The position numbers were made by a program, and so were the translations under genes. A stretch of DNA of 64,000 nt from an uncultured Planctomycetota bacterium (GTDB lineage Bacteria; Planctomycetota; Planctomycetia; Gemmatales; Gemmataceae). How positions within the stretch are numbered: position 1 is the first letter of the stretch; each line of letters starts with the position of its first letter. Below the pieces are notes generated by a model. The model saw only the letters and a list, made by a program, of their open reading frames with translations. It did not search any database and was not told the origin of the DNA. Positions 51,673 to 64,000 of the stretch are shown here, one piece after another. Where the stretch lies: the NCBI GenBank assembly GCA_963849325.1, contig CAWKHF010000004.1, positions 384,001-448,000 of the forward strand, in the 5' to 3' direction.

Positions 51673-52160
51673 TCTGCGTACCCCCAAAAAGGCAGCGGGG
51701 TCCGACCGTCATTCACCGCTATTCTGATAAACGGCCGAAAGAGCTGTTTGGAGACAGGGCAGGATGCGATTCTCCGCGCCGACGCGAAATGAACTCCGGA
51801 TGTCGAGCCGGTTGAGAGAGGAAGAGATGGTGAAAAAGGATGCGAGCGGAGGCGACAGAACGGCAATTGAACTTTTTATCGCCGGCATCCAGGGCTGGGA
51901 AGCCGGCTTGCGGCAGATTATCTCGGGGAAATCGAGCAGCGACACGCAATCGTAAATCATTGTGTGATCTTTGCTTCCGAACAGACTCTCGGCATGGAGG
52001 GCCGACCGCGCGGCAGTCTACCCAGAAATCGACTCTTACGAATCTCATCTCCCGCGCCGATTCCTCCAATCCGCTCATCCCCCTCTGATCGGCGTATTCG
52101 GCAGGACCATACCGCTCCTTTCCTCTTGCCGCCAGTACGAGACGGTACGAACATGAGGAT

Positions 52161-52769
52161 ATGGCCTTCCCCTGGTGGTTCCTCCTCGGTCTCAACCGCA
52201 TGAAACTCTTCTCCGCGATCCGTTGGGTTCTCCGCCTCCTCTTGCTGCCCCGCAGCCAACTCGTCCTGGAGAATCTGGCCCTGCGTCAACAACTGGCCAT
52301 CTTCAGCCGACAGCGGCCACGACCATCGCTGCGCCGCCGCGACCGACTCTTCTGGATCTGCCTATCGCGGTGGTACTCAGGGTGGCGCTCAGTATTGGTC
52401 CTCGTACAACCGGACACGGTCCTCCGCTGGCACCAGCAGGGCTTCCGTCTGTGGTGGCGCTGGAAGTCCCGGAGGAAGCGAGCGGGGCGTCCGCCGCTGG
52501 ACAAGGAAGTCCGTGACCTCATCGGCCGCATGGCTCGTGAAAACCCGACCTGGGGCGTTCCGCGTATCCGGGCCGAACTGCGCCTGCTGGGCCATGACGT
52601 CGCCGAAGCCACCGTGGCCAAGTATCGGCCGCAGCCACGTCATCCCAAGCCGCCGTCGCAGACCTGGCGGACATTCTTGAGGAACCACGCCGGCACGCTG
52701 GCTTCGATGGATTTATTCGTGGTGCCCACGATCACATTTGATCGGCTCTGCTTGCCCATCGCGTCGTAG
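52161..52769 (+). mobile_element. Truncated integrase-core (DDE) transposase remnant
   Basis: LENLALRQQL, VQPDTVLRWH, MARENPTWG.PRI, SQTWRTFLRNHA; breaks off after MDLFVVPTITF. Confidence 0.8.
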
Positions 52770-52821
52770 CCAGCGCTGCCCGTTCGAGTGGAAGTCAGCG
52801 TCATTCGCCCTGGACTCCTTC

Positions 52822-53121
52822 TTATCCTTGTCCGTCACCGTTGTAAGAATAGGTGTAGGTAGCGATCGGACCTCGCGTGTCCTCCGCGAGGGGCGCCAGC
52901 GGGAGAGGGAGGGTGGAATACTCTTCCACGCGAACGAACCCGCTCATGCCATCGTAGGTATAGCTGTAGGCGGAATCACATTCGCTCCGCTCGCGGAGGT
53001 CGGCCGCGGGGGGTCGTCGGGGAGCGGTGGCGGTTCGGGCCGGACGCGGGCAGAGCCAGGCGGTCAAGCCAGCTAACACGCTGCCCAGTAGGCGGCGGCG
53101 AGAGAGTCGATCTGTACTCAT
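52822..53121 (-). CDS. Small protein with a Tat-like leader and YxYxY(D/N) motifs
   Basis: MSTDRLSRRRLLGSVLAGLTAWL; YSYTYDG; TYTYSYNG; GGAGGA RBS. Confidence 0.55.
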   Translation of the reverse strand: MSTDRLSRRRLLGSVLAGLTAWLCPRPARTATAPRRPPAADLRERSECDSAYSYTYDGMSGFVRVEEYSTLPLPLAPLAEDTRGPIATYTYSYNGDGQG

Positions 53122-53379
53122 GGCAAATCCTCCAGAAAAGCAACGGTTCCTGAGACGAATGACGCTGACTTAAGACCTACTTTCCGTGAAAACCTAACAC
53201 GCATTGTCAATGGGCGCTCCATAGCCGTGTGGATTTCTTCGTGGAGTGATCACGCCTTGCAACGTCTTACGCTTGTCCGCAGGCGACGGCCGACGCTCCT
53301 CCCTGTCCCACGGCGAACGGCTCCGATCCACCAACTCGGCCTCGTCACGCGACGACGCCCACGCCTCCACCACTCTGTA

Positions 53380-54170
53380 CAGTACCCGGTTGGCCAGCGT
53401 GCCGGAGAACGGCGCCGGGAAGGCGGGTATGCCGCTGGTGCCGTTGGCGTCCGTGTATGTCCCCGAACCCGAGTACGACCACGAGGTGCCGCCGCTCTCC
53501 GAGCCGTCCAGGTCGTCGTCGTCCTCGCCATCGCTGCTGTCCGAATAGTTGTCTTGCAGCGTCGTCGTGCCGCTGCTGCTGGTCGTGCGTGTGTAGGCGC
53601 CGGTGGAACTGTTGCCCGATTCGGTGATGGTGCTGTTAGTGGTGCTGGTCTCGGTGTAGGAAGCGCTGCCGCTGGACGTGATGGTCGTGTCCTGGATGGT
53701 GATGCTACTGCTGCTGCTGCCGCTGCCAGAATATGCGCCGTCGAGTCGTTGCCCGACTGCTGCCACGACTGCGTCGCGCTGCTGCTGGCGCTCAGGGTCG
53801 AGGTGCCGGCGCTGTTGGTCGCCGTCTGCTGCACGCTGCTATGGGTCGTGGTCGTGGTCGTCTGGCTGTTGTCGCCGGTGGACTCGTCGTCGCTGTTGCT
53901 GCTGGTGCCGCTGGTCGTGCTGGTCTGCGTCAGGGTGAAGTTGGTGTTCGTGGCCAGGTCTTCGCCGCTCTCCGTGATGGTCGTGCCGCCGCCGCTGGTC
54001 GTGGTCAGCGCATCGCTGCCGGCGTCGTCGTCCTCAACCCAGTTGCCCGAGCTGTTGATGGTTTCGACGCTGACGGGGTTGCCTGTCGTGTCCATCCAGC
54101 CGCTCTCGATGATGGTGCCGCTGCCCGATACCGCTCCCGAGACCGTGAACGAACCGGAGCCGGAATAGCC
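53380..54170 (-). pseudogene. Third, rearranged carrier-protein fragment (no start codon, no toxin tip)
   Basis: Near-identical to 57160-57785 and 60060-60680, joined to a piece of the 130-aa repeat. Confidence 0.75.
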
Positions 54171-55885
54171 TTATTTGTTGATCTGCACAGTCTGAGCAAT
54201 TACATAATACTCTAGCTCGGAAGGCATTGATCGGTTCTCAGGGCGTAGGTGTTCAGGCAAGGAATCAGATGACGGTCCAATAGCTTTCCACTGACGTGTC
54301 ACCCTCGGCAGTGATTTCCAATTTAACGGTTTCAATCCAACGTAATCACTATATTCGTAATGTGCAATTTCTATATTTGATAAAAAAAAGTGCAAAGTAT
54401 AGCTTGGAGCCTCGCTTTTTCCGATAGGAAACACAAAGAAGAGTTTTCGGTATTTACCACCATATTCTGGTGATAAGTTCACATGATGGAATACCATCAG
54501 CCCCTTTTCATTAGAAATTGGGACAGCATCTTCTCGATAATCAGTTATTGGGTAGCCGAATGCAGTTCCTCCCTCATCATTACTCACCGAGAGCGTGACA
54601 CCACTAATAGGTTGTCCATGTTGGTCCAGAAATGTAACCTGAAACTCAGCTTGGGCAAATCCCCCCTCCCATACTTCTACAATACCGCAACAACACAAGA
54701 ACACCAAACCAATAAAAGCGGCGACGATACCCATTACTGAGTCCAGCACGAGGAAAGATTCCCCTTGTTACTGAACTTGTGTATAATACAGCATGAGACC
54801 TAAAGGAACATCTGCTGAACTCGAACGCCGCCGTCGCCGCGCCGTCGAACTCGTCGAACAGGGCGAATCCCCTACCGTGGTCGCCCGCATCCTCGGCGTC
54901 CGCACCGCCTCCGTCCACCGCTGGCGACGCATGGCCCAACAACCCCACGGCCTGGACGCCACGGCCCATCCCCGGCCCGACGCCCCGCCTCTCCGACTAC
55001 CAACTCCGCAAACTCGAACGACTCCTCCGTCAAGGCGCCAAGAACCACGGCTGGCCCAACCAACTGTGGACCGCCGACCGCGTCGCCCGCCTCATCCGCC
55101 AACGCTTCGGCGTCTCCTTCCACCCCGAACACGTCCGCAAGATCCTCAAGCAGCGCCTGGGCTGGACCAGCCAGAAACCCAAACGCAAGGCCCGCGAACG
55201 CAACGACAAGGAGGTGGAGCGCTGGAAGGGCGATGAACTGCCCCGCATCCTCCGCGAGGCCTGGAAGCGGCAGGCCCACGTCGTCTTCCTCGACGAATCG
55301 GGCTTCCAACTGACGCCCTCGGTGCGTCGGACCTTGGCCCCGCGGGGCCAGACGCCGGTGCTGGACGTGCTGGGACCGGCGCGACCGCATCTCGGCCATT
55401 AGTTGCATCACGCTCAGTCCACTGGCAGGGCCGGCCGGGGCTGTACTTCGAGTTGCTGCCGCTCAACACGACGGTCCATGCGGAGGAGGTGGTGGCCTTT
55501 TTGAAGGACGTTGCGGCGGCAGTTGCGTGGGCCGTTCACGGTGGTGTGGGACCGGCACAACATCCACAGCAAGTCGCGGGTGGTGAAGGCGTTCTTGGCC
55601 GAACATCCGGAGATCGTGGCGGAGGACTTCCCTGGGTACGTGCCGGACTTGAACCCCGACGAGTGGGTGTGGGGTTGGACGAAGTACGGCCGCTTGAGCA
55701 ACCTGGCGGCATGGAACGCCGAGGAGTTATGGGACCACATCGTCATGGCTCTGATCGATCTCAAGTTCCAACCGCGAATGCTGAATGCTTTCATCCAGGA
55801 GGCTGGGATACCTGTGGCGGCATGATAGTATCTTTACCAATGCTGGACTCAGTAGGACAACCCTATGAGTTATTATCCTCGTCAT
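54171..55885 (-). pseudogene. AT-rich putative immunity gene with an N-terminal TM, interrupted by IS630 after codon 11
   Basis: Removing the IS and one TA restores MTRIITHRVVL-MGIVAAFIGLVFLCCCG in frame; follows the toxin tip directly. Confidence 0.75.
54737..55852 (+). mobile_element. IS630-family insertion sequence (frameshifted transposase 54793-55825)
   Basis: Terminal inverted repeats CTGAGTCCAGCAnnnGnAAAGAT, TA target duplication, FLDESGF / VVWD / PDLNPDEWVW motifs. Confidence 0.92.
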
Positions 55886-55902
55886 AATATTAACTCCGCA
55901 GC

Positions 55903-57943
55903 CTATTTTCCTCGTTTCTTAGCCATAAGTTCATCATACTTTCGAGCAAGGTAGTCTATGGTGCTCTGCCATTGCTGTGCATCCTTCAAGAAATTATCGG
56001 TGTTGGTTTCGTCGAACCCTTCTCTTCTACCAAGTTCACGAACTATAACATCAACTTGGCGATACAGGAGACGATCCCAATACAATGTCGTAATATGTAT
56101 CGTTTCTCCGGTTGGACTGAACAAATACCGTATATATGCGTCCGTCTCATTTTCTGTCGGTGGCGAGGTATCTTCTTTGAAGGCAATGTGTTCGCCTTTA
56201 TTTATCTGTCGGAAAATTGACTGTATCTTTCCGATATAAAATGATCTCCCAGTATAGTGGAAGAATGTGGGCCATCCACCTTCCGCGACAGGTGGAAGAA
56301 AATCGTGGAACGTCTTGCTGAGGTTTCTATACGTTTTGTCTATACCCGGTTCAGTTGCCATCGGTTGTTTGAAAGTTGCCATACTCTTCAGTTCATCCCA
56401 GTGATCCGTTAACATTGACAGAGCTTTTTCTAGTTTCGTTGACGCTTCCCAAGTATTGTTTATGAGTTGTTTTCTTTGTGCCTCGGTAAAACCGTACCAA
56501 GTTAAGTTAATTGATGTCGGTGGGGCATCGCTGGTCGGGGGGGCATCGCTGAAAGGCTGTCCGAACGGCGAATAATCGAGATTGCCCGGACCTGAGCCCG
56601 ATACCGCGTTGGAGACATTGGCAAAACCCTGCAGCACGCAGTAACGATCCTGTCCGGTCTCGCTCTGGCGAAGGCTGCCGCTCTTCCAATCGCCACTCTC
56701 TTGCAAGCTGTAGTTGTAACTGCCGGGACCATTGGACATGGTAGCGCCGGGGCCGCTGTCGGTCAAGGTGTAACTGCCGCTGCCCGACGCCGTACGCGAG
56801 AAGGTCTGGTCGAACGAGTTGCCTGTCTCGGTCACAATGTTTGTTTCGTTGCCCTGCACCGCCTCCTCGTAGCTGCCGCCGCTGGCCTGGCCGCTCTCCG
56901 TCAGCGTGTAAATGTCGCTGCCCGACTGGCTCATGCTATAGGCGCCCGTGATCGTGTTGGCGTTCACCCAGCCGCTGCTAGTCTGACTGCCCGAGGCCGT
57001 CAACGTGTAATTGCTGCTGCCGCTGGCCGTCTGCGTCATGCTGTAGTTGTCCGTGCTGGACAGCGTGGCGGAGTCACTGCCGCTCTGGATGTTGCCCGTG
57101 TCTTGACGGCTGCTGCTTTGGCTGTCGCTCTCGCTGGTCGTCACCGTGCCGCTGCTGTCCGAATAGCTGTCTTGCAGCGTCGTCGTGCCGCTGCTGCTGG
57201 TCGTGCGGTCGTAGGCGCCGGTGGAACTGTTGCCCGATTCGGTGATGGTGCTGCTGGTGTTGCTGATCTCCGTGTAGGACGCACTGCCGCTGGACGTAAT
57301 GGTCGTGTCCTGGATGGTGATGCTACTGCTGCTGCTGCCGCTGCCGGAATACTCGCCCGTCGTGTCGTTGCCCGATTGCTGCCACGACTGCGTCGCGCTG
57401 CTGCTGGTGCTCAGGGTCGAGGTGCCGGCACTGTTGCTCGCCGTCTGCTGCACGCTGGTCTGGGTCGTGGTCGTGTTCGTCTGGCTGTTGTCGCCGGTGG
57501 ACTCGTCGTCGCTGTTGCTGTTGCTGCCGCTGGTAGTGCTGGTCTGCGTCAGGGTGAAGTTGGTGTTCGTGGCCAGGTCTTCGCCGCTCTCCGTGATCGT
57601 CGTGCCGCCACCGCTGGTGGTGGTGAGCGCGTCGCTGCCGGCGTCGTCGTCCTCAACCCAATTGTCCGAGTTGTCGATGGTTTCGACGCTGACGGGGTTA
57701 CCCTGCGTGTCCATCCAGCCGTTCTCGGTGATGGTGCCGCTGCCGGATACCGCTCCCGAGACCGTGAACGAACCGGAGCCGGCGTAGGAGGCATCGTAGC
57801 TGACGCTGAAGCTGATGGAGGCACTGCCCGAGACGCTGCCGCCGTCGCTCCAATTGCCGCCGATAATGCCGGTGATGCTGCCGGAGGCATCGGCTGTTCC
57901 CGTGACGCTGGCGCTGTCCAGAGAAGCAATGCCGCTGCCGGCG
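55903..57943 (-). CDS. Orphan toxin cassette: partial carrier C-terminal region, junction, and a different AT-rich tip
   Basis: 57943-56540 is highly similar to 60843-59440; the sequence after FSDAPP is unrelated. Confidence 0.8.
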
Positions 57944-58053
57944 ATGTTTCCGGTGCGATGATCCCTGAATCGCGCTCCTCCATCCGCCACATGACTGCCC
58001 GGATGGCATTTTCGGGAAGGACACGCTCGCGATTACCGGATTCAGGGTTGATT

Positions 58054-58533
58054 TTAATATATAATGAGCTTACCCTCAGGAAAATCTCCTTTCCAACCAC
58101 ATGGGAAATGTCCTTTGACATACCAGTAAGCCTGGCTGGCATAAAATCCAGGTGGATAAACATCTGCGTACTCTGCTTCCATGCACACGCCAACAATATC
58201 CCACTGCACCGTATCTTCAAATACTTTCGGCAGTTTATTTTTGCGAACCACGTCCTCGATCATTTTAAGGACAAGTGGCATGGAATAATGTTTTACTTCC
58301 GTGACAATGTCATTCCATTTCCTAAAACGTTCCATCGATCTTTCGCATAATCGTTCACGGTACTGGTTAGAGGCTTCCAGACAAAGCTCCTCCCATTCAG
58401 AAGATTTGCACGATTCAATCGCCTCCTGCCAAGACGATAATACGATGGCCGCATCCGTATCCTTCACGCCAACGCGTGAAAACCAACGAGCTTCTTCAAG
58501 CTCTCTTAAAGTGGCGATTGTCCTGGGATGCAT
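58054..58533 (-). CDS. Putative immunity protein
   Basis: AT-rich 159-aa gene 13 nt after the toxin stop; C-terminal GHFPCGW motif resembles toxin-adjacent immunity genes. Confidence 0.75.
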   Translation of the reverse strand: MHPRTIATLRELEEARWFSRVGVKDTDAAIVLSSWQEAIESCKSSEWEELCLEASNQYRERLCERSMERFRKWNDIVTEVKHYSMPLVLKMIEDVVRKNKLPKVFEDTVQWDIVGVCMEAEYADVYPPGFYASQAYWYVKGHFPCGWKGDFPEGKLIIY

Positions 58534-58546
58534 AAAGAATATCTCC

Positions 58547-61500
58547 TTATTTTTTTTGCCCCAAGGGGTTCGGTATCCGTGGCACCGGGCCTGTGGGTTT
58601 CAATCCATACAGTCGTTGTTGAGCAGCAGCACGATCCACGAGAATTGATGCCTCCTCAGGAGAATAACCACTATCCTCCAAGGCACGCCGTAAGGCCGCC
58701 AGGTATTCAGAATTCGTCGGTGTTTTCTGGAAACGAGAGCCGCCTTTCCGATATTGCGCCCAGAACTTCTCCATAGACTCATGGAATTTATAATGGGGGG
58801 TTCCAACATCCTTAAAAGCATTACCTCGCATACCGTTGGCCAAACCTTCTTCCTCTGGGATTACACTTTTATATGCTGCGTTTTGGTTAAGATGGTTCGC
58901 CTGCTGATTAGTATCTTTGAGTTTAGTGGTCATATTCTTATAGGAACCGGTCACCAGACCATTTATTATACGTACCGTAATAACCTTTTCTCCTGGTCGT
59001 TTAACTTCAATTAGGGCATCCTTTCCAGCCCGTTTCGCCGTAAGAACTGTGCCGTCTTGGAGCGTTACTCGCCACGTATCACGATCCACACGATCAAGAG
59101 TGGATAGAGTTCTATGCGAACGCCCAAATGACTCAATAGTGCTGACCGCATCCTCAAAACTGTCCTTGGTCCGAGCCGGCGTTGCATAATAGTTGTCCTT
59201 CACCTTTGACACGTTATTAAGAGAGTCACAGCAACATTCAGAACTTTTACTTTATGTTTTAATTTTTTCCCTTCGATGGTATCTTTCGCGGTAACTACCA
59301 GGTCGTGTATAGCAATAAAAAGCTGACCTGGTATCTTTGCTGAGTCAGCTTTGGCGTCGGCCGTTTCAGCTTTAATGGCGGCTGCAGCGTCTAACTGTGT
59401 GGCAGTTCCCAAGCGAGTAACCAACGGCGGTACACTCGGAGGTGCGTCGCTGAAAGGGGTTCCGAACGGCGCGTAGTCGAGGTTGCCCGGTCCCGCGACA
59501 GAGGCGGCGTTGGAGACATTGGCGAAGCCTTGCAGAAGGGCGTAGCGATCGTGTCCGGTCTCGCTCTGGCTCAGGCTGCCGCTCTTCCAGTCGCCACTCT
59601 CTTGCAAGCTGTAGTTGTAACTGCCCGGACCATTGGGCATGGTAGCGCCGGGACCGCTGTCCGTCAAGGTATAACTGCCGCTGCCCGAGTTGCTGCGTTG
59701 GAAGGTCTGATCGAACGAGTTGCCCGTCTCGGTCACGCTATTGGTCTCGCTGCCCTGCACCGTCTCCTCGTAGCTGCCGCCGCTGGCCTGGCCGCTCTCC
59801 GTCAGCGTGTAAATGTCGCTGCCGGTCTGGCTCATGCTGTAGGCGCCCGTGATCGTGTTGGCATTCTCCCAGCTGTTGCTGGTCTGACTGCCCGAGGCCG
59901 TCAACGTGTAATTGCTGCTGCCGCTGGCCGTCTGCGTCATGCTGTAGTTGTCCGTGCTGGACAGCGTGGCCGAGTCGCTGCCGCTCTGGGTATTACCCAC
60001 GTCCTGACGGCTGCTGCTTTGACTGTCGCTCTCGCTGGTCGTCACCGTGCCGTTACTGTCCGAGTCGGTGTCTTGCAGCGTCGTCGTGCCGCTGCTGATG
60101 GTCGTGCGGTCGTAGGCGCCGGTGATGGTGTCGCCCGATTCGGTGATGGTGCTGCTGGTGTTGCTGATCTCCGTGTAGGACGCGCTACCGCTTGCCGTGA
60201 CGGTCGTGTCCTGGATGGTGATGCTACTGCTACTGCTGCCGCTGCCGGAATACGCACCCGTGGTGTCGTTGCCCGATTGCTGCCAGGATTGCGTCGCGCT
60301 GCTGCTGGTGCTCAGAGTCGAGGTGCCGGCACTGTTGGTCGCCGTCTGCTGCACGCTGGTATGAGTCGTGGTCGTGCTCGATTGGCTATTGTCGCCGCTG
60401 GTCTTGTCGTCGCTGTTGCTGCTGCTGCCGCTGGTCGTGCTGGTCTGCGTCAGGGTGAAGCTGGTGTTCGTGGCTAGGTCTTCGCCGGTCTCGGTGATTG
60501 TCGTGCTGCCGCCGCTGGTCGTGGTCAGGGCATCACTGCCGGCGTCGTCGTCCTCAACCCAGTTGCCTGCGCTGTTGATGGTTTCGACGCTGACGGGGTT
60601 GCCGGACGTGTCCATCCAGCCGCTCTCGGTGATGGTGCCGCTGCCTGACACCGCTCCCGAGACCGCGAAGCTTCCCGAACCGGCGTAGGAGGCATCGTAG
60701 CTGACACTGTAATTGATGGAGGCGCTGCCCGAGGCGCTGACGCCATCGCTCCAGTTGCCGCCAATGACGCCGGTGATGTTGCCGGAGGCTTGGGCCGTGC
60801 CCGTGACGCTGGCGCTGTCCAGGGAGGCGATGCCGCTGCCGGCGTTGGCATCGGTATACGTCCCGGAGCCGCTGTACGACCACGAGATCGAACCGCTCTC
60901 CGAGCCGCTGCCGGAGTCGCTTTCCGAACCCGTGGCCAGGTTGTTGTCATCGTCCTCGCTGCCGCCGGCGTGCAGATGACCGCTCTCGGTGATGGTGCCG
61001 CCGCCATTCACAGCCCCTGTCGCCGTGAAGGTGCCGGAGCCGGAATAGGAGGCGTCGTTGGTGGCGGTGTTGGTGACGGAGACGCTGCCCGACATGCTGG
61101 CGGTGCCGCTGTTGCTTTCGCTGCCGCCGATGACACCCGTGATGCTGCCCGAAGCCCAGGCAGTGCCCGTCACCGTACCCGAGATGATCGCCGAGACCGA
61201 GCCGGGTACGAAGAAAAAGACGCCATTGGTGCCATTGCTGTCCGTATAGATGCCACTACCCGAGTACGACCACGAGGTGGCGCCGCTTTCGGAGCCGCTA
61301 CCGGAGTCGCTCTCCGCACCTGTGGCCAGGTTGTCGTCATCGTCCTCATTGTCGCCACTGTTCAGGAAGCCGCTCTCGGTGATCGTGCCGCCACCATTGA
61401 CGGCGCCGGTCGCCGTGAAGGTTCCGGAGCCGGAATACGAGGCGTCATTGGTGGCCGTGGTGGTGACGGAGACACTGCCCGACATGCTGGCGGTGCCGCT

Positions 61501-64000
61501 GTTGCTCTCGCTACCGCCGATGACACCATTGATACTGCCCGAGGCCCAGGCCGTTCCTCCCACGGTTCCCGTGATGATGGCCGAGGCGGAGCCAGGAACA
61601 AAAAACGAGACGCCACTGGTGCCGTTGGCGTCCGTATACGATCCTGAACCCGAGTACGACCAGAACGTCGAGCCGCTCTCGGAGCCGCTGCCGGAATCGG
61701 TCTCCGAGCCGGTGGCCAGGTTATCGTCATCGTCCTCGCTGCCGCCGGCGTGCAGATGACCGCTCTCGGTGATGGTGCCGCCGCCATTCACAGCCCCTGT
61801 CGCCGTGAAGGTGCCGGAGCCGGAATAGGAGGCGTCGTTGGTGGCGGTGTTGGTGACGGAGACGCTGCCCGACATGCTGGCGGTGCCGCTGTTGCTTTCG
61901 CTGCCGCCGATGACACCCGTGATGCTGCCCGAAGCCCAGGCAGTGCCCGTCACCGTACCCGAGATGATCGCCGAAGCAGAACCCGGCACGAAGAACGAGA
62001 CGCCGCTGGTCCCGTTGGCATCGGTGTACGTCCCCGAACCCGAATACGACCATGAGGTGGCGCCGCTCTGGGAGCCGCTGCCAGAGTCGCTCTCCGAACC
62101 CGTGGCCAGGTCGTCGTCATCGTCCTCGCTATCGCCTGTGTGTAGATGACCACTCTCCGTGATCGTGCCGCCGCCAATGACGGCGCCGCTAGCGACAAAC
62201 GTACCGGAGCCGGAGTACGAGGCATCGTTGGTGGCGGTGTTGGTGACGGAGACGCTGCCCGACATGCTGGCGGTGCCGCTGTTGCTCTCGCTGCCGCCGA
62301 TGACACCATTGATACTGCCCGAGGCCCAGGCCGTTCCTCCCACGCTCCCCATTATGACGGCCGAGGCGGAGCCAGGAACAAAAAACGAGACGCCGCTAGT
62401 CCCGTTACTGTCTGTGTACGTCCCCGAACCCGAATACGACCATGAGGTGGCGCCGCTCTGGGAGCCGCTGCCAGAGTCGCTCTCCGAACCCGTGGCCAGG
62501 TCGTCGTCATCGTCCTCGCTATCGCCTGTGTGTAGATGACCACTCTCCGTGATCGTGCCGCCGCCAATGACGGCGCCGCTAGCGACAAACGTACCGGAGC
62601 CGGAGTACGAGGCATCGTTGGTGGCGGTGTTGGTGACGGAGACGCTGCCCGACATGCTGGCGGTGCCGCTGTTGCTCTCGCTACCGCCGATGACACCATT
62701 GATACTGCCCGAGGCCCAGGCCGTTCCTCCCACGCTCCCCGTTATGACGGCCGAGGCGCTGCCAGGCACGAAGAAAGAAACGCCGCTGGTGCCGTTAGCA
62801 TCCGTGTACGTTCCCGAACCGCTGTACGACCAGGACGTGCCGCCGCTTTCGGAGCCGCTGCCGGAGTCGCTCTCCGAACCAGTGGCCAGGTCGTCGTCTT
62901 CGTCCTCGCCGCCGCCGCTGTCCAGGTGGCCGCTCTCGGTGATCGTACCGCCGCCATTGACCGCGCCCGAAGCCGTGAAGGTGCCCGAGCCGCTGTAGGA
63001 GGCGTCGTTGGTGGCGGTGTTGGTGACGGAGACGCTGCCCGACGTGCTGGCGCCGCCGCTGTCGCTCTCGTTGCCACCGATGACGCCGGTGATGCTGCCC
63101 GAAGCCCAGGCCGTCCCTCCCACCGTCCCCGAGATGATTGCCGAGGCGGAGCCAGGAACGAAGAAGGAGACGCCGCTGGTGCCGTTGCTGTCCGTATAGC
63201 TGCCACTGCCCGAGTACGACCATGACGTGCCGCCGCTCTCCGAACCGCTGCCCGAGTCGCTCTCCACACTGCTGCCCGAAGAACCTCCCAAGTCGTCGCT
63301 GCCCGACTCTCCATCGCCGGTGTGCAGGTGACCGCTCTCAGTGATCGTACCGCCGCCATTGACGGCGCCCGACGCCGTGAACGTACCCGAGCCGGAATAC
63401 GAGGCGTCATTGGTCGCCGTGGTGGTGGTGGCGACGCTACCCGACGTGCTGGGGCTGGCGCTGCCGCTGCTGCTGTCCGTATAGCTGCCGCCGATGACAC
63501 CCGTGATGCTGCCCGAAGCCCAAGCCGTCCCTCCCACCGTCCCCGTGATGATCGCCGAGGCGGAGCCAGGAACGAAGAAGGAAACGCCGCTGGTGCCGTT
63601 GGCATCCGTGTACGTCCCCGAACCGCTGTACGACCATGACGTGCCGCCGCTCTCGGAGCCGCTGCCGGAGCCGCTCTCCGCCGTCACACTGCCCGAAGAA
63701 CCCCCGATAGCACCATCGTCAACCTCGCCGCCGCCGGTGTGCAGATGACCGCTCTCGGTGATCGTACCGCCGCCATTGACGGCGCCGGTGGCCGTGAACG
63801 TACCGGAGCCGGAATACGAGGCGTCGTTGGTCGCCGTGGTGGTAGCGGACACGCTGCCCGAGGTGCTGGGGCTGGCGCTGCCGCTGCTGCTGTCCGTATA
63901 GCTACCGCCGATGACGCCCGTGATGCTGCCCGAAGCCCAGGCGCTGCCCGTCACCGTCCCCGAGATGATCGCCGAGGCGGAGCCAGGAACAAAGAAGGAG
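58547..64000 (-). CDS. Giant Ser/Gly/Thr-rich repeat protein with a C-terminal putative nuclease toxin (begins beyond the window; apparent -1 frameshift near 59220)
   Basis: About 8 repeats of ~130 aa, a ~460-aa non-repeated S/T-rich region, PGNLDYAPFGTPFSDAPP, then an AT-rich tip with NHLNQNAAY...TPHYKFHE. Confidence 0.85.
60843..64000 (-). repeat. Tandem ~390-bp coding repeats
   Basis: Matching blocks offset by 390 bp (62146 vs 62536) and 780 bp (61058 vs 61838). Confidence 0.92.

Follow-up and report, generated by a model that had tools for sequence, protein, structure and literature searches.

Polymorphic toxins are a main means of bacterial kin discrimination and competition. Nearly all that is understood of their delivery was, to our knowledge, learned from Proteobacteria, Bacteroidota and Firmicutes. 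Here we describe a locus of an uncultured Planctomycetota bacterium of the family Gemmataceae (assembly GCA_963849325.1), whose genome of 8.16 Mb, with 65% GC, is distributed over 14 contigs. The stretch analysed, called the window below, comprises 64,000 nucleotides of contig CAWKHF010000004.1 (C4:384001-448000); unless a contig is named, coordinates are those of the window. Near its end lies the 3′ half of a giant, repeat-built gene, the carrier, followed on the minus strand by AT-rich tails, small genes and partial copies of the carrier. Judged from its sequence, this is very likely a planctomycete polymorphic toxin-immunity locus, composed of a carrier, exchangeable tips, immunity genes and orphan modules.

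In the definition of Zhang et al. 2012, a polymorphic toxin system has a C-terminal toxin, tails that are diverse after a common junction, a cognate immunity gene downstream and orphan cassettes carrying pre-toxin sequence. CdiA is a giant surface protein built of repeats, in which a variable toxin is followed by an immunity gene, and downstream orphans share its pre-toxin sequence. Its FHA-2 region, a predicted large beta sheet, precedes the pretoxin and toxin parts and associates with the target outer membrane during delivery (PMC13625785). Rhs proteins combine a beta-hairpin region, a conserved junction and a variable toxin with an immunity gene and orphan modules, and PT-HINT toxins follow a tripartite layout of trafficking, stalk and toxin parts (PMC3482391). 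Contact-dependent toxins on long filaments have been noted in planctomycetes (Zhang et al. 2012, PMC3482391). The accessible text of that work lists RHS, filamentous haemagglutinin, tail-fibre and ALF as repeat types and does not name the module described here; its supplement could list such proteins.

Read along the minus strand, the locus consists of the main gene, tip A, a 159-aa gene, an 82-nt element, orphan module 1 with tip B, an IS630-family element on the opposite strand, a 192-aa gene, a third carrier fragment and a transposase remnant. A preliminary description of the same sequence had listed eight elements (the carrier, its junction, tips A and B, two small genes and two carrier copies), all of which we find on the minus strand. 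The AT-richness it ascribed to tips and small genes is borne out by a GC content of 0.40-0.51, against 0.62-0.69 in the carrier, and the drop comes after the junction. The carrier, given there as longer than 1600 aa, is an open frame of 1599 aa within the window (59200-64000, minus strand), the gene starting outside it. On contig C4 the complete protein has 3255 aa, from an ATG at C4:452967 (window-equivalent 68967) to the stop at window position 59200.

The carrier begins with MGKIARAKAW...FEILEDRFLLS, followed by a Ser/Thr/Gly-rich region, and its N-terminal region is devoid of a Sec-type hydrophobic stretch. Residues 418-2711 form a stalk of 17 tandem units of 130-145 aa each, and the last 546 aa are made up of a 468-aa pre-toxin region and a 78-aa tail. 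About 8 of the 17 units fall within the window (60835-64000, minus strand) as Ser/Gly/Thr-rich tandem repeats of 130-139 aa (390-417 nt), for which TRF reports a period of 390 nt, 7.8 copies and 83% matches. Against Pfam and NCBIfam the carrier has no family, only chance low-complexity matches, including a weak ClfB-like one. In a collection of 5.8 billion sequences, within the length range examined and the 8000 candidates scored, the 130-aa repeat occurs in only three other proteins; in one of them the repeats run directly into PT-HINT, and another has a different C-terminal domain. An AlphaFold2 model of two such repeats, based on 11 paralogous or homologous rows, was unusable (pLDDT 35).

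The pre-toxin region (59437-60840, minus strand) closes with the junction motif PGNLDYAPFGTPFSDAPP (59437-59490, minus strand), and homology between copies stops at the last codon of this motif. In the window the junction reads PGNLDYxPFGxPFSDAPP; the genome's five copies read PGNLDY(A/S)PFGxPF(S/T/R)D. The preliminary description had noted one junction shared by the carrier and its startless copy. In a six-frame translation of the whole genome, DYxPFGxPF is present five times, and every time it closes a pre-toxin copy. The five junctions lead into five unrelated tails.

This pattern extends to the relatives. A phmmer search with the 468-aa region against 1.84 billion cluster representatives returned 223 homologous clusters at E ≤ 1e-3, including 153 at ≤ 1e-10 and 30 at ≤ 1e-30. 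Tails, junctions and Pfam domains were counted in the best 150 of the 223 matches, with Pfam run on 149 since one protein (P0141) was too long. The last 110 residues of the region are matched in 144 of the 150, and 131 of these 144 align up to the junction. There the family consensus is SQSETGxDRYxLLExFxNVSNxxxGxxPG(N/H)x(D/N)(Y/F)xPxGxPFxDP, after which the sequences diverge into tails of 0-901 aa (median 201). It had been anticipated that homologues would carry many unrelated C-termini behind one junction, and this is what we observe: the 109 tails of at least 80 aa fall into 70 single-linkage blastp groups, namely 64 singletons, five groups of 2-3 members and one of 34, the last linked through PT-HINT. 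Most of the 70 groups have no known family. PT-HINT itself is present in 35 of the 149 relatives (12/77, 10/11 and 13/61), placed between junction and toxin. GH-E, AHH, DUF2380, SsdA_C and WHH score above the Pfam cut-off in one relative each, and EndoU, PT-TG and Deam_C slightly below it. Two long relatives carry Big_9/cadherin or Big_3_5 domains in the stalk. Pfam detects no RHS, haemagglutinin, VENN, LXG or PAAR domain in the 149 relatives. Where several kilobases of downstream sequence are available in metagenome-assembled genomes, three of the four loci (L014-L016) hold pre-toxin copies in tandem, two in each, with low-GC DNA after every copy.

Tip A is encoded in two pieces. The first, 78 aa directly after the junction (59200-59436, minus strand), ends at the stop codon 59200-59202 and has no Pfam match; the second is a 221-aa frame (58547-59212, minus strand) that is offset by one base and overlaps the carrier frame. 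The tip announced in the preliminary description is present, with its low GC after the junction, but it is split over these two overlapping frames. Its toxin domain corresponds to residues ~88-221 of the 221-aa frame (58550-58951); three Rhs proteins, one of them with PAAR in addition, carry at their extreme C-termini a sequence 51-57% identical to it. In one of the Rhs proteins (P0154) the match begins just past the DPxGL motif. Against PDB sequences, tip A gives chance-level matches only. Metagenome contigs contain 77 loci that encode a tip A-type domain. In two of them the match reaches farther upstream, to residue 6 (L048) and residue 35 (L026) of the 221-aa frame, and upstream of the match in L048 a frame remains open as far as the contig end; for this reason the 221-aa frame would normally be the end of a larger protein. 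A programmed frameshift was considered and rejected: in the frame of the second piece a stop lies between an A6 run and the start of the overlap, so that slipping would be unproductive. Nor does the overlap show a canonical slippery heptamer.

Immediately downstream lies the 159-aa gene (58054-58533, minus strand), which is conserved behind tip A-type domains. A homologue is found on the same strand, ~10-130 nt 3′ of the domain, in 59 of the 67 loci with at least 520 nt of room; eight loci with room are without it, and 65 of all 77 loci possess it. The protein has no Pfam or NCBIfam match and no usable match in Atlas. Modelling of a complex between tip A (residues 60-221) and the 159-aa protein gave a score of 0.00, which speaks neither for nor against binding. 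On the strength of the conserved gene order, the 159-aa gene is the predicted immunity partner of tip A. Elsewhere on the contig, at C4:87800-94500, small genes are clustered; one is a 35%-identical paralogue of this immunity candidate, and several encode small proteins that are repeated. The cluster is a possible poly-immunity locus.

Orphan module 1 is a frame of 695 aa (55903-57990, minus strand) that joins a pre-toxin copy (56535-57946) to tip B (55906-56534). Positions 57946-56535 are 88.7% identical to 60847-59436 over 1412 nt, ungapped, and the identity ends exactly at the DAPP codons; all 468 codons of the pre-toxin copy are uninterrupted. The preliminary description spoke of a startless copy of ~1.4 kb. 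Its length, its end at the same junction and its want of an ATG are as described, but the frame opens with a GTG at 57990. Tip B is unrelated to tip A. It has no Pfam match and no relatives among longer proteins, and its PDB matches are at chance level. Assignment to Aspzincin_M35 was set aside, as the likeness is at feature level only (0.92-0.93, ~160 shared features) and the tip contains no HExxH.

The small gene listed after tip B is there as well, but an IS630-family element lies in between. This gene of 192 aa (54171-54749, minus strand; GC ~0.40) has a hydrophobic N-terminus and is predicted to encode a membrane-anchored immunity protein for tip B. Its likely start, an ATG at 54734, abuts the end of the IS630 element, and the gene itself looks intact. 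The element (54735-55854, plus strand) has its transposase spread over three frames, with HTH_23 and DDE_3 matches, and is bounded by terminal inverted repeats of 25 nt that are 84% complementary (54735-54759 and 55830-55854). On contig C5 (C5:772074-772936) a tip B remnant (its last 49 aa, 73% identical) is followed after ~190 nt by a paralogue of the 192-aa protein with 64% identity. Because the two adjoin there, the IS630 element appears to have split a cognate pair. The membrane anchor of the 192-aa protein suggests that tip B acts outside the cytoplasm. The C5 site itself, low in GC and surrounded by housekeeping genes, has the look of an orphan immunity relic. Antisense to the IS630 transposase runs a 126-aa frame (55414-55794), which is not credible as a gene.

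The third carrier fragment (53415-54168, minus strand) is decayed. As claimed beforehand, it derives from the carrier: positions 54149-53537 are 90.1% identical to the pre-toxin region over 614 nt, with one gap and one frame break, and a piece of the 130-aa repeat is attached. On contig C6 a paralogous locus (~306-330 kb; L001, L002) contains two carriers and several orphans; it adds three complete tips that are likewise unrelated. Its pre-toxin copies are 55-63% identical in protein sequence to the C4 query over the main aligned stretches. The C6 carriers have the same kind of N-terminus and a different stalk, which includes a Calx-beta domain. Since the C6 stalks differ and the 130-aa repeat occurs in few other proteins, stalk and pre-toxin module appear to be separable parts, with the pre-toxin module as the signature of the family. 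The C6 locus also has small genes of low GC, one of which encodes an S1 domain, as well as a match that is weakly Barstar-like; one of its tips is ParB-like in look, unconfirmed by Pfam.

Compared with the definition given above, the family shows diverse tails after a common junction and orphan cassettes with pre-toxin sequence (the copies of 1412 nt and 614 nt, those on C6 and those of L014-L016). A downstream cognate immunity gene is indicated by conserved gene order. That the C-terminal domain is a toxin is suggested by homology only, through the toxin domains of the relatives and the Rhs cassette to which the tip A domain corresponds. With CdiA the locus shares a giant repeat-built, putative surface protein, a variable toxin followed by an immunity gene, and downstream orphans with the same pre-toxin sequence. 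A large predicted beta-sheet region directly before the pretoxin junction is common to both, FHA-2 holding this place in the published description of CdiA as far as it was accessible. Unlike CdiA, the carrier has no TPS domain, haemagglutinin repeats or VENN according to Pfam, nor VENN at the junction; no CdiB is adjacent, and the stalk is made of 130-aa Ser/Gly/Thr repeats. Rhs systems offer the same succession of beta-hairpin region, conserved junction, variable toxin, immunity gene and orphan modules, and the toxin-immunity cassette of tip A belongs to a family that ends Rhs proteins. The N-terminal domains of LXG, PAAR and MafB proteins are found nowhere in the whole carrier (Pfam, NCBIfam).

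The tripartite layout reported for PT-HINT toxins, as far as their accessible description goes, recurs here too, and 35 of the 149 relatives place PT-HINT between junction and toxin. In contrast, RHS, haemagglutinin, tail-fibre and ALF repeats are not detected in our sequences, and the five copies of this genome are without HINT, though HINT occurs elsewhere in it. The preliminary description, seeing no Rhs, haemagglutinin, VENN, LXG, PAAR or Hint motif in the visible carrier, called the scaffold unrecognised; the Pfam and NCBIfam scans give no match to any of these, and neither those databases nor the Rhs profile recognise the carrier. It is likewise absent from the literature that we consulted on polymorphic toxins in Planctomycetes and Gemmata, on contact-dependent toxins and immunity in Planctomycetota, on pretoxin beta-barrels and on LEDRxLL motifs. 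The further proposal of a new class holds for the carrier and the pre-toxin family, which are new, but not in the sense of a wholly separate class, because relatives use PT-HINT and the tip A cassette is shared with Rhs. By sequence, the locus is best described as a new carrier and pre-toxin family within the known polymorphic-toxin kind.

The pre-toxin region has no family in Pfam or NCBIfam, and its profile has 0 matches among PDB sequences. We modelled it with AlphaFold2 from a 62-row alignment (mean pLDDT 82, pTM 0.76; pLDDT at least 90 in 298 of 468 residues). A degenerate last repeat is followed by ~15 long beta strands, a short helix and the junction. The strands, at residues 102-429 (~59554-60537 of the window), are antiparallel, mostly 20 residues long and joined by tight turns at both ends, within a conserved all-beta module of ~370 aa. 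Foldseek returns weak matches only, with the EspP autotransporter on top (E 8e-4, TM 0.2-0.3). In an exhaustive VIA-align comparison with 48,161 chains, all 50 listed matches are membrane beta-barrels: the best is CymA (Z 18.1, rmsd 6.7 Å over 266 residues), with OccD2 at 14.5 and FhaC and CdiB at ~13. The module is thus predicted to be barrel-like, with EspP, CymA and FhaC/CdiB as the best structural matches of the model, and the likeness is in fold only: there is no sequence relationship, the strands are uniformly ~20 residues long, and Ser and Thr together make up 45%. In detail, the composition is 24.5% Ser, 20.9% Thr and 10.9% Gly, and A, L, I, V, F, W, M and Y together reach ~19%. In most strands one face is almost wholly Ser/Thr, the other a mixture of Tyr/Leu/Ile/Val with Asp/Glu/Gln.

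LEDRxLLS-type N-termini are common in planctomycete giant proteins. In this genome the pattern LE[DE]Rx[LMVF][LPM][SATN] occurs 31 times, and 23 of these occurrences fall in the first 150 aa of open frames exceeding 300 aa. N-termini of the LE[DE]RxLL(S/A) type have a basic, Trp-rich stretch ahead of the motif and lack a Sec-like hydrophobic core. The motif region of the carrier lies at C4:452760-452967, and the N-terminus of a distant family member (P0023) is similar. Such N-termini may mark a general, uncharacterised export class in this organism. The nearest ShlB-family genes, at C4:477262-479004 and C6:366586-367473, are 25 and ~36 kb away from the carrier starts. Each copy of this TpsB-type gene (POTRA_2 and ShlB) sits beside its own TPS-domain gene. 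No PF05860 (TPS) match was obtained in carrier residues 1-1660, in a scan that found PF05860 in the TpsB neighbour with an E-value of 1e-37. TpsB was therefore set aside as the exporter of the carrier: it has a TPS partner of its own, and the carrier lacks the domain. As for type VI secretion, the genome (84.7% complete) yielded no member of the sheath family VipB (TssC).

Put together, the carrier would be a protein displayed at the surface, with an N-terminal region, a 17-repeat stalk, a beta pre-toxin module and an exchangeable toxin. If it works as contact-dependent inhibition (CDI) and Rhs systems do, the tip of the main gene would be the deployed one, and each tip's own immunity gene would protect sibling cells. 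The orphans would form a reservoir from which the active tip could be replaced by homologous recombination via the 1.4-kb pre-toxin repeat. The tip would presumably be released at or near the junction. Because the five copies in this genome have no HINT, release could not rely on it here; a candidate site of processing is the nearly invariant Asp at the junction's end, after which most relatives have Pro.

For the beta module itself, our proposals are more tentative. By analogy with CdiA FHA-2, it might act at the envelope of the target cell, a suggestion we hold with low confidence. It is rather doubtful that the module is a self-inserting barrel or sheet which enters the target outer membrane and passes the toxin through, the carrier being exported by the LEDRxLLS-type N-terminal route and not by secretion types V, VI or VII. 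Were this true, planctomycete toxins would have a translocon built into the toxin protein itself, and the 82-nt element would mark cassette boundaries for exchange or expression. That the module presents or encloses the toxin seems unlikely.

Several points weigh against the reading as a toxin-immunity locus. Tip A spans two frames in this assembly, and the IS630 element lies between tip B and its partner gene. The C6 carriers are frame-broken too. As assembled, the locus described here may be non-functional. Tip B and the three complete C6 tips show no recognisable toxin family by sequence. Toxicity, protection, secretion and cleavage are all sequence-based predictions, and no dedicated exporter gene adjoins the carrier. 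The beta module, very polar (45% Ser and Thr) and devoid of an obvious hydrophobic belt, does not look like a lipid-facing barrel, and the closure of the predicted barrel comes from a single AlphaFold2 model. Finally, the module was found in none of 40 relatives from the same genus, family, order or class, and in none of 400 sampled genomes of the phylum, with three candidates scored per genome. The family is consequently rare or patchy. The named genomes in which a scan with a 15-row alignment has so far found the module are six metagenome-assembled ones, labelled Gemmatales (one), Gemmataceae (two), Pirellulales (one) and unclassified Planctomycetota (two).

The frame breaks raise the possibility that the C4 locus is a decaying relic, whose main gene has no working toxin and whose pseudogene modules are kept only for immunity against the toxins of relatives. 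We regard this as possible, if doubtful. It would account for the split of tip A, the IS630 insertion, the frame-broken and chimeric third fragment and the breaks in the C6 carriers and in a second tip, on C6, which is interrupted in the same manner as tip A. It would also suit the remnant of a transposase N-terminus at the distal edge of the locus (52161-52769, plus strand), with HTH_32 and HTH_21 matches below the Pfam cut-off. The carrier frame of 3255 aa and the orphan copy of 468 codons are, however, uninterrupted. The breaks, moreover, could be errors of the incomplete assembly, because two near-identical copies of 6.8 kb (C4:472169-479003 and C6:360769-367601, 98.3% identical) are four single-base indels apart. 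Many long genes are frame-broken in the region of these copies. Indel errors may be present in the assembly, and all frame breaks described here are to be read with this in mind.

It is also conceivable, though quite improbable, that the pre-toxin module is a highly diverged Rhs/YD shell enclosing the toxin, which would make the locus an atypical Rhs system. It would be in keeping with this that the module is built of beta hairpins of ~20 residues in which the pattern (Y)T(L)TE(S/T)G recurs, and that, as in Rhs, a conserved junction and then a variable tip come directly after it. The toxin domain of tip A is common to Rhs proteins, and Foldseek does list teneurin chains, far down and at probabilities of no more than 0.03. 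Against this, RHS_repeat (PF05593) matches none of the 149 relatives or window proteins, while the same model has 23 matches elsewhere in the genome. A profile-profile comparison of the pre-toxin region with three Rhs proteins (hhalign) gives a probability of 0.08%. The junction follows PGNxDYxPxGxPFxDP and not PxxxxDPxGL, and lacks DPxGL. In the model, the pre-toxin fold is predicted to be closest to porin-like barrels; the 50 best VIA-align matches include no shell of Rhs, Tc or teneurin type, an absence that with this tool does not exclude the fold. The same genome does encode several Rhs-repeat genes, at C5:345300-346900, C6:594900-606200 and C6:801500-802700.

That the carrier is instead a non-toxic adhesin or cell-wall protein, with a C-terminus varying for attachment or antigenic variation and with unrelated small genes beside it, is hardly credible: Ser/Thr/Gly-rich repeats do resemble adhesin stalks, one low-complexity match is weakly ClfB-like and relatives have Ig-like, cadherin-like or Calx-beta stalk domains, but behind the junction relatives carry nuclease and deaminase toxin domains and PT-HINT, and the tip A domain is a C-terminal Rhs cassette with the same partner gene next to it in 59 of 67 loci.

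If the locus is a polymorphic toxin-immunity locus as we propose, planctomycetes now have a defined carrier family, comprising at least 223 sequence clusters, whose junction and module provide a handle for harvesting many new toxin and immunity domains. It also raises a testable question, that of a toxin crossing the cell envelope without a recognised secretion system. Toxin cassettes are common to this carrier and to Rhs carriers of other phyla, and have probably moved on conjugative elements.

Mobile functions adjoin both loci. A duplicated region of ~37-41 kb (C4:456523-493845 and C6:339560-380358, 78-98% identical in blocks) has one copy adjoining each toxin locus. It carries a TrwC relaxase, a type IV coupling protein, two serine recombinases and the TpsB/TpsA pair; a serine recombinase is found at C4:492088-493896. 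Both toxin loci are probably carried by conjugative elements as cargo, and the patchy distribution of the family would be in line with that. Upstream of the C4 carrier are a sulfotransferase-family gene and a frame-broken helicase gene.

The 82-nt inter-module element lies at the 5′ edge of orphan module 1 (57942-58023, minus strand). Four copies of 82-85 nt exist in the genome, the others at C6:306629-306710, C6:318950-319031 and C6:309035-309121. Three copies are ~95% identical and one ~75%; their flanks are unrelated, and the element contains a 7-bp inverted repeat. All four lie in the C4 and C6 loci, each between an immunity gene and the carrier piece that comes next. The element has no Rfam match and folds no better than shuffled sequences (z 0.76), and its 25-nt core pattern has 0 matches in the metagenome contigs. 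It could serve as a promoter, as a site of recombination or to mark the edge of a cassette. Over window positions 52000-64000, Rfam gives one chance-level match only. Elsewhere in the same genome, a tandem PT-HINT array is found on contig C12 (C12:241362-247450).

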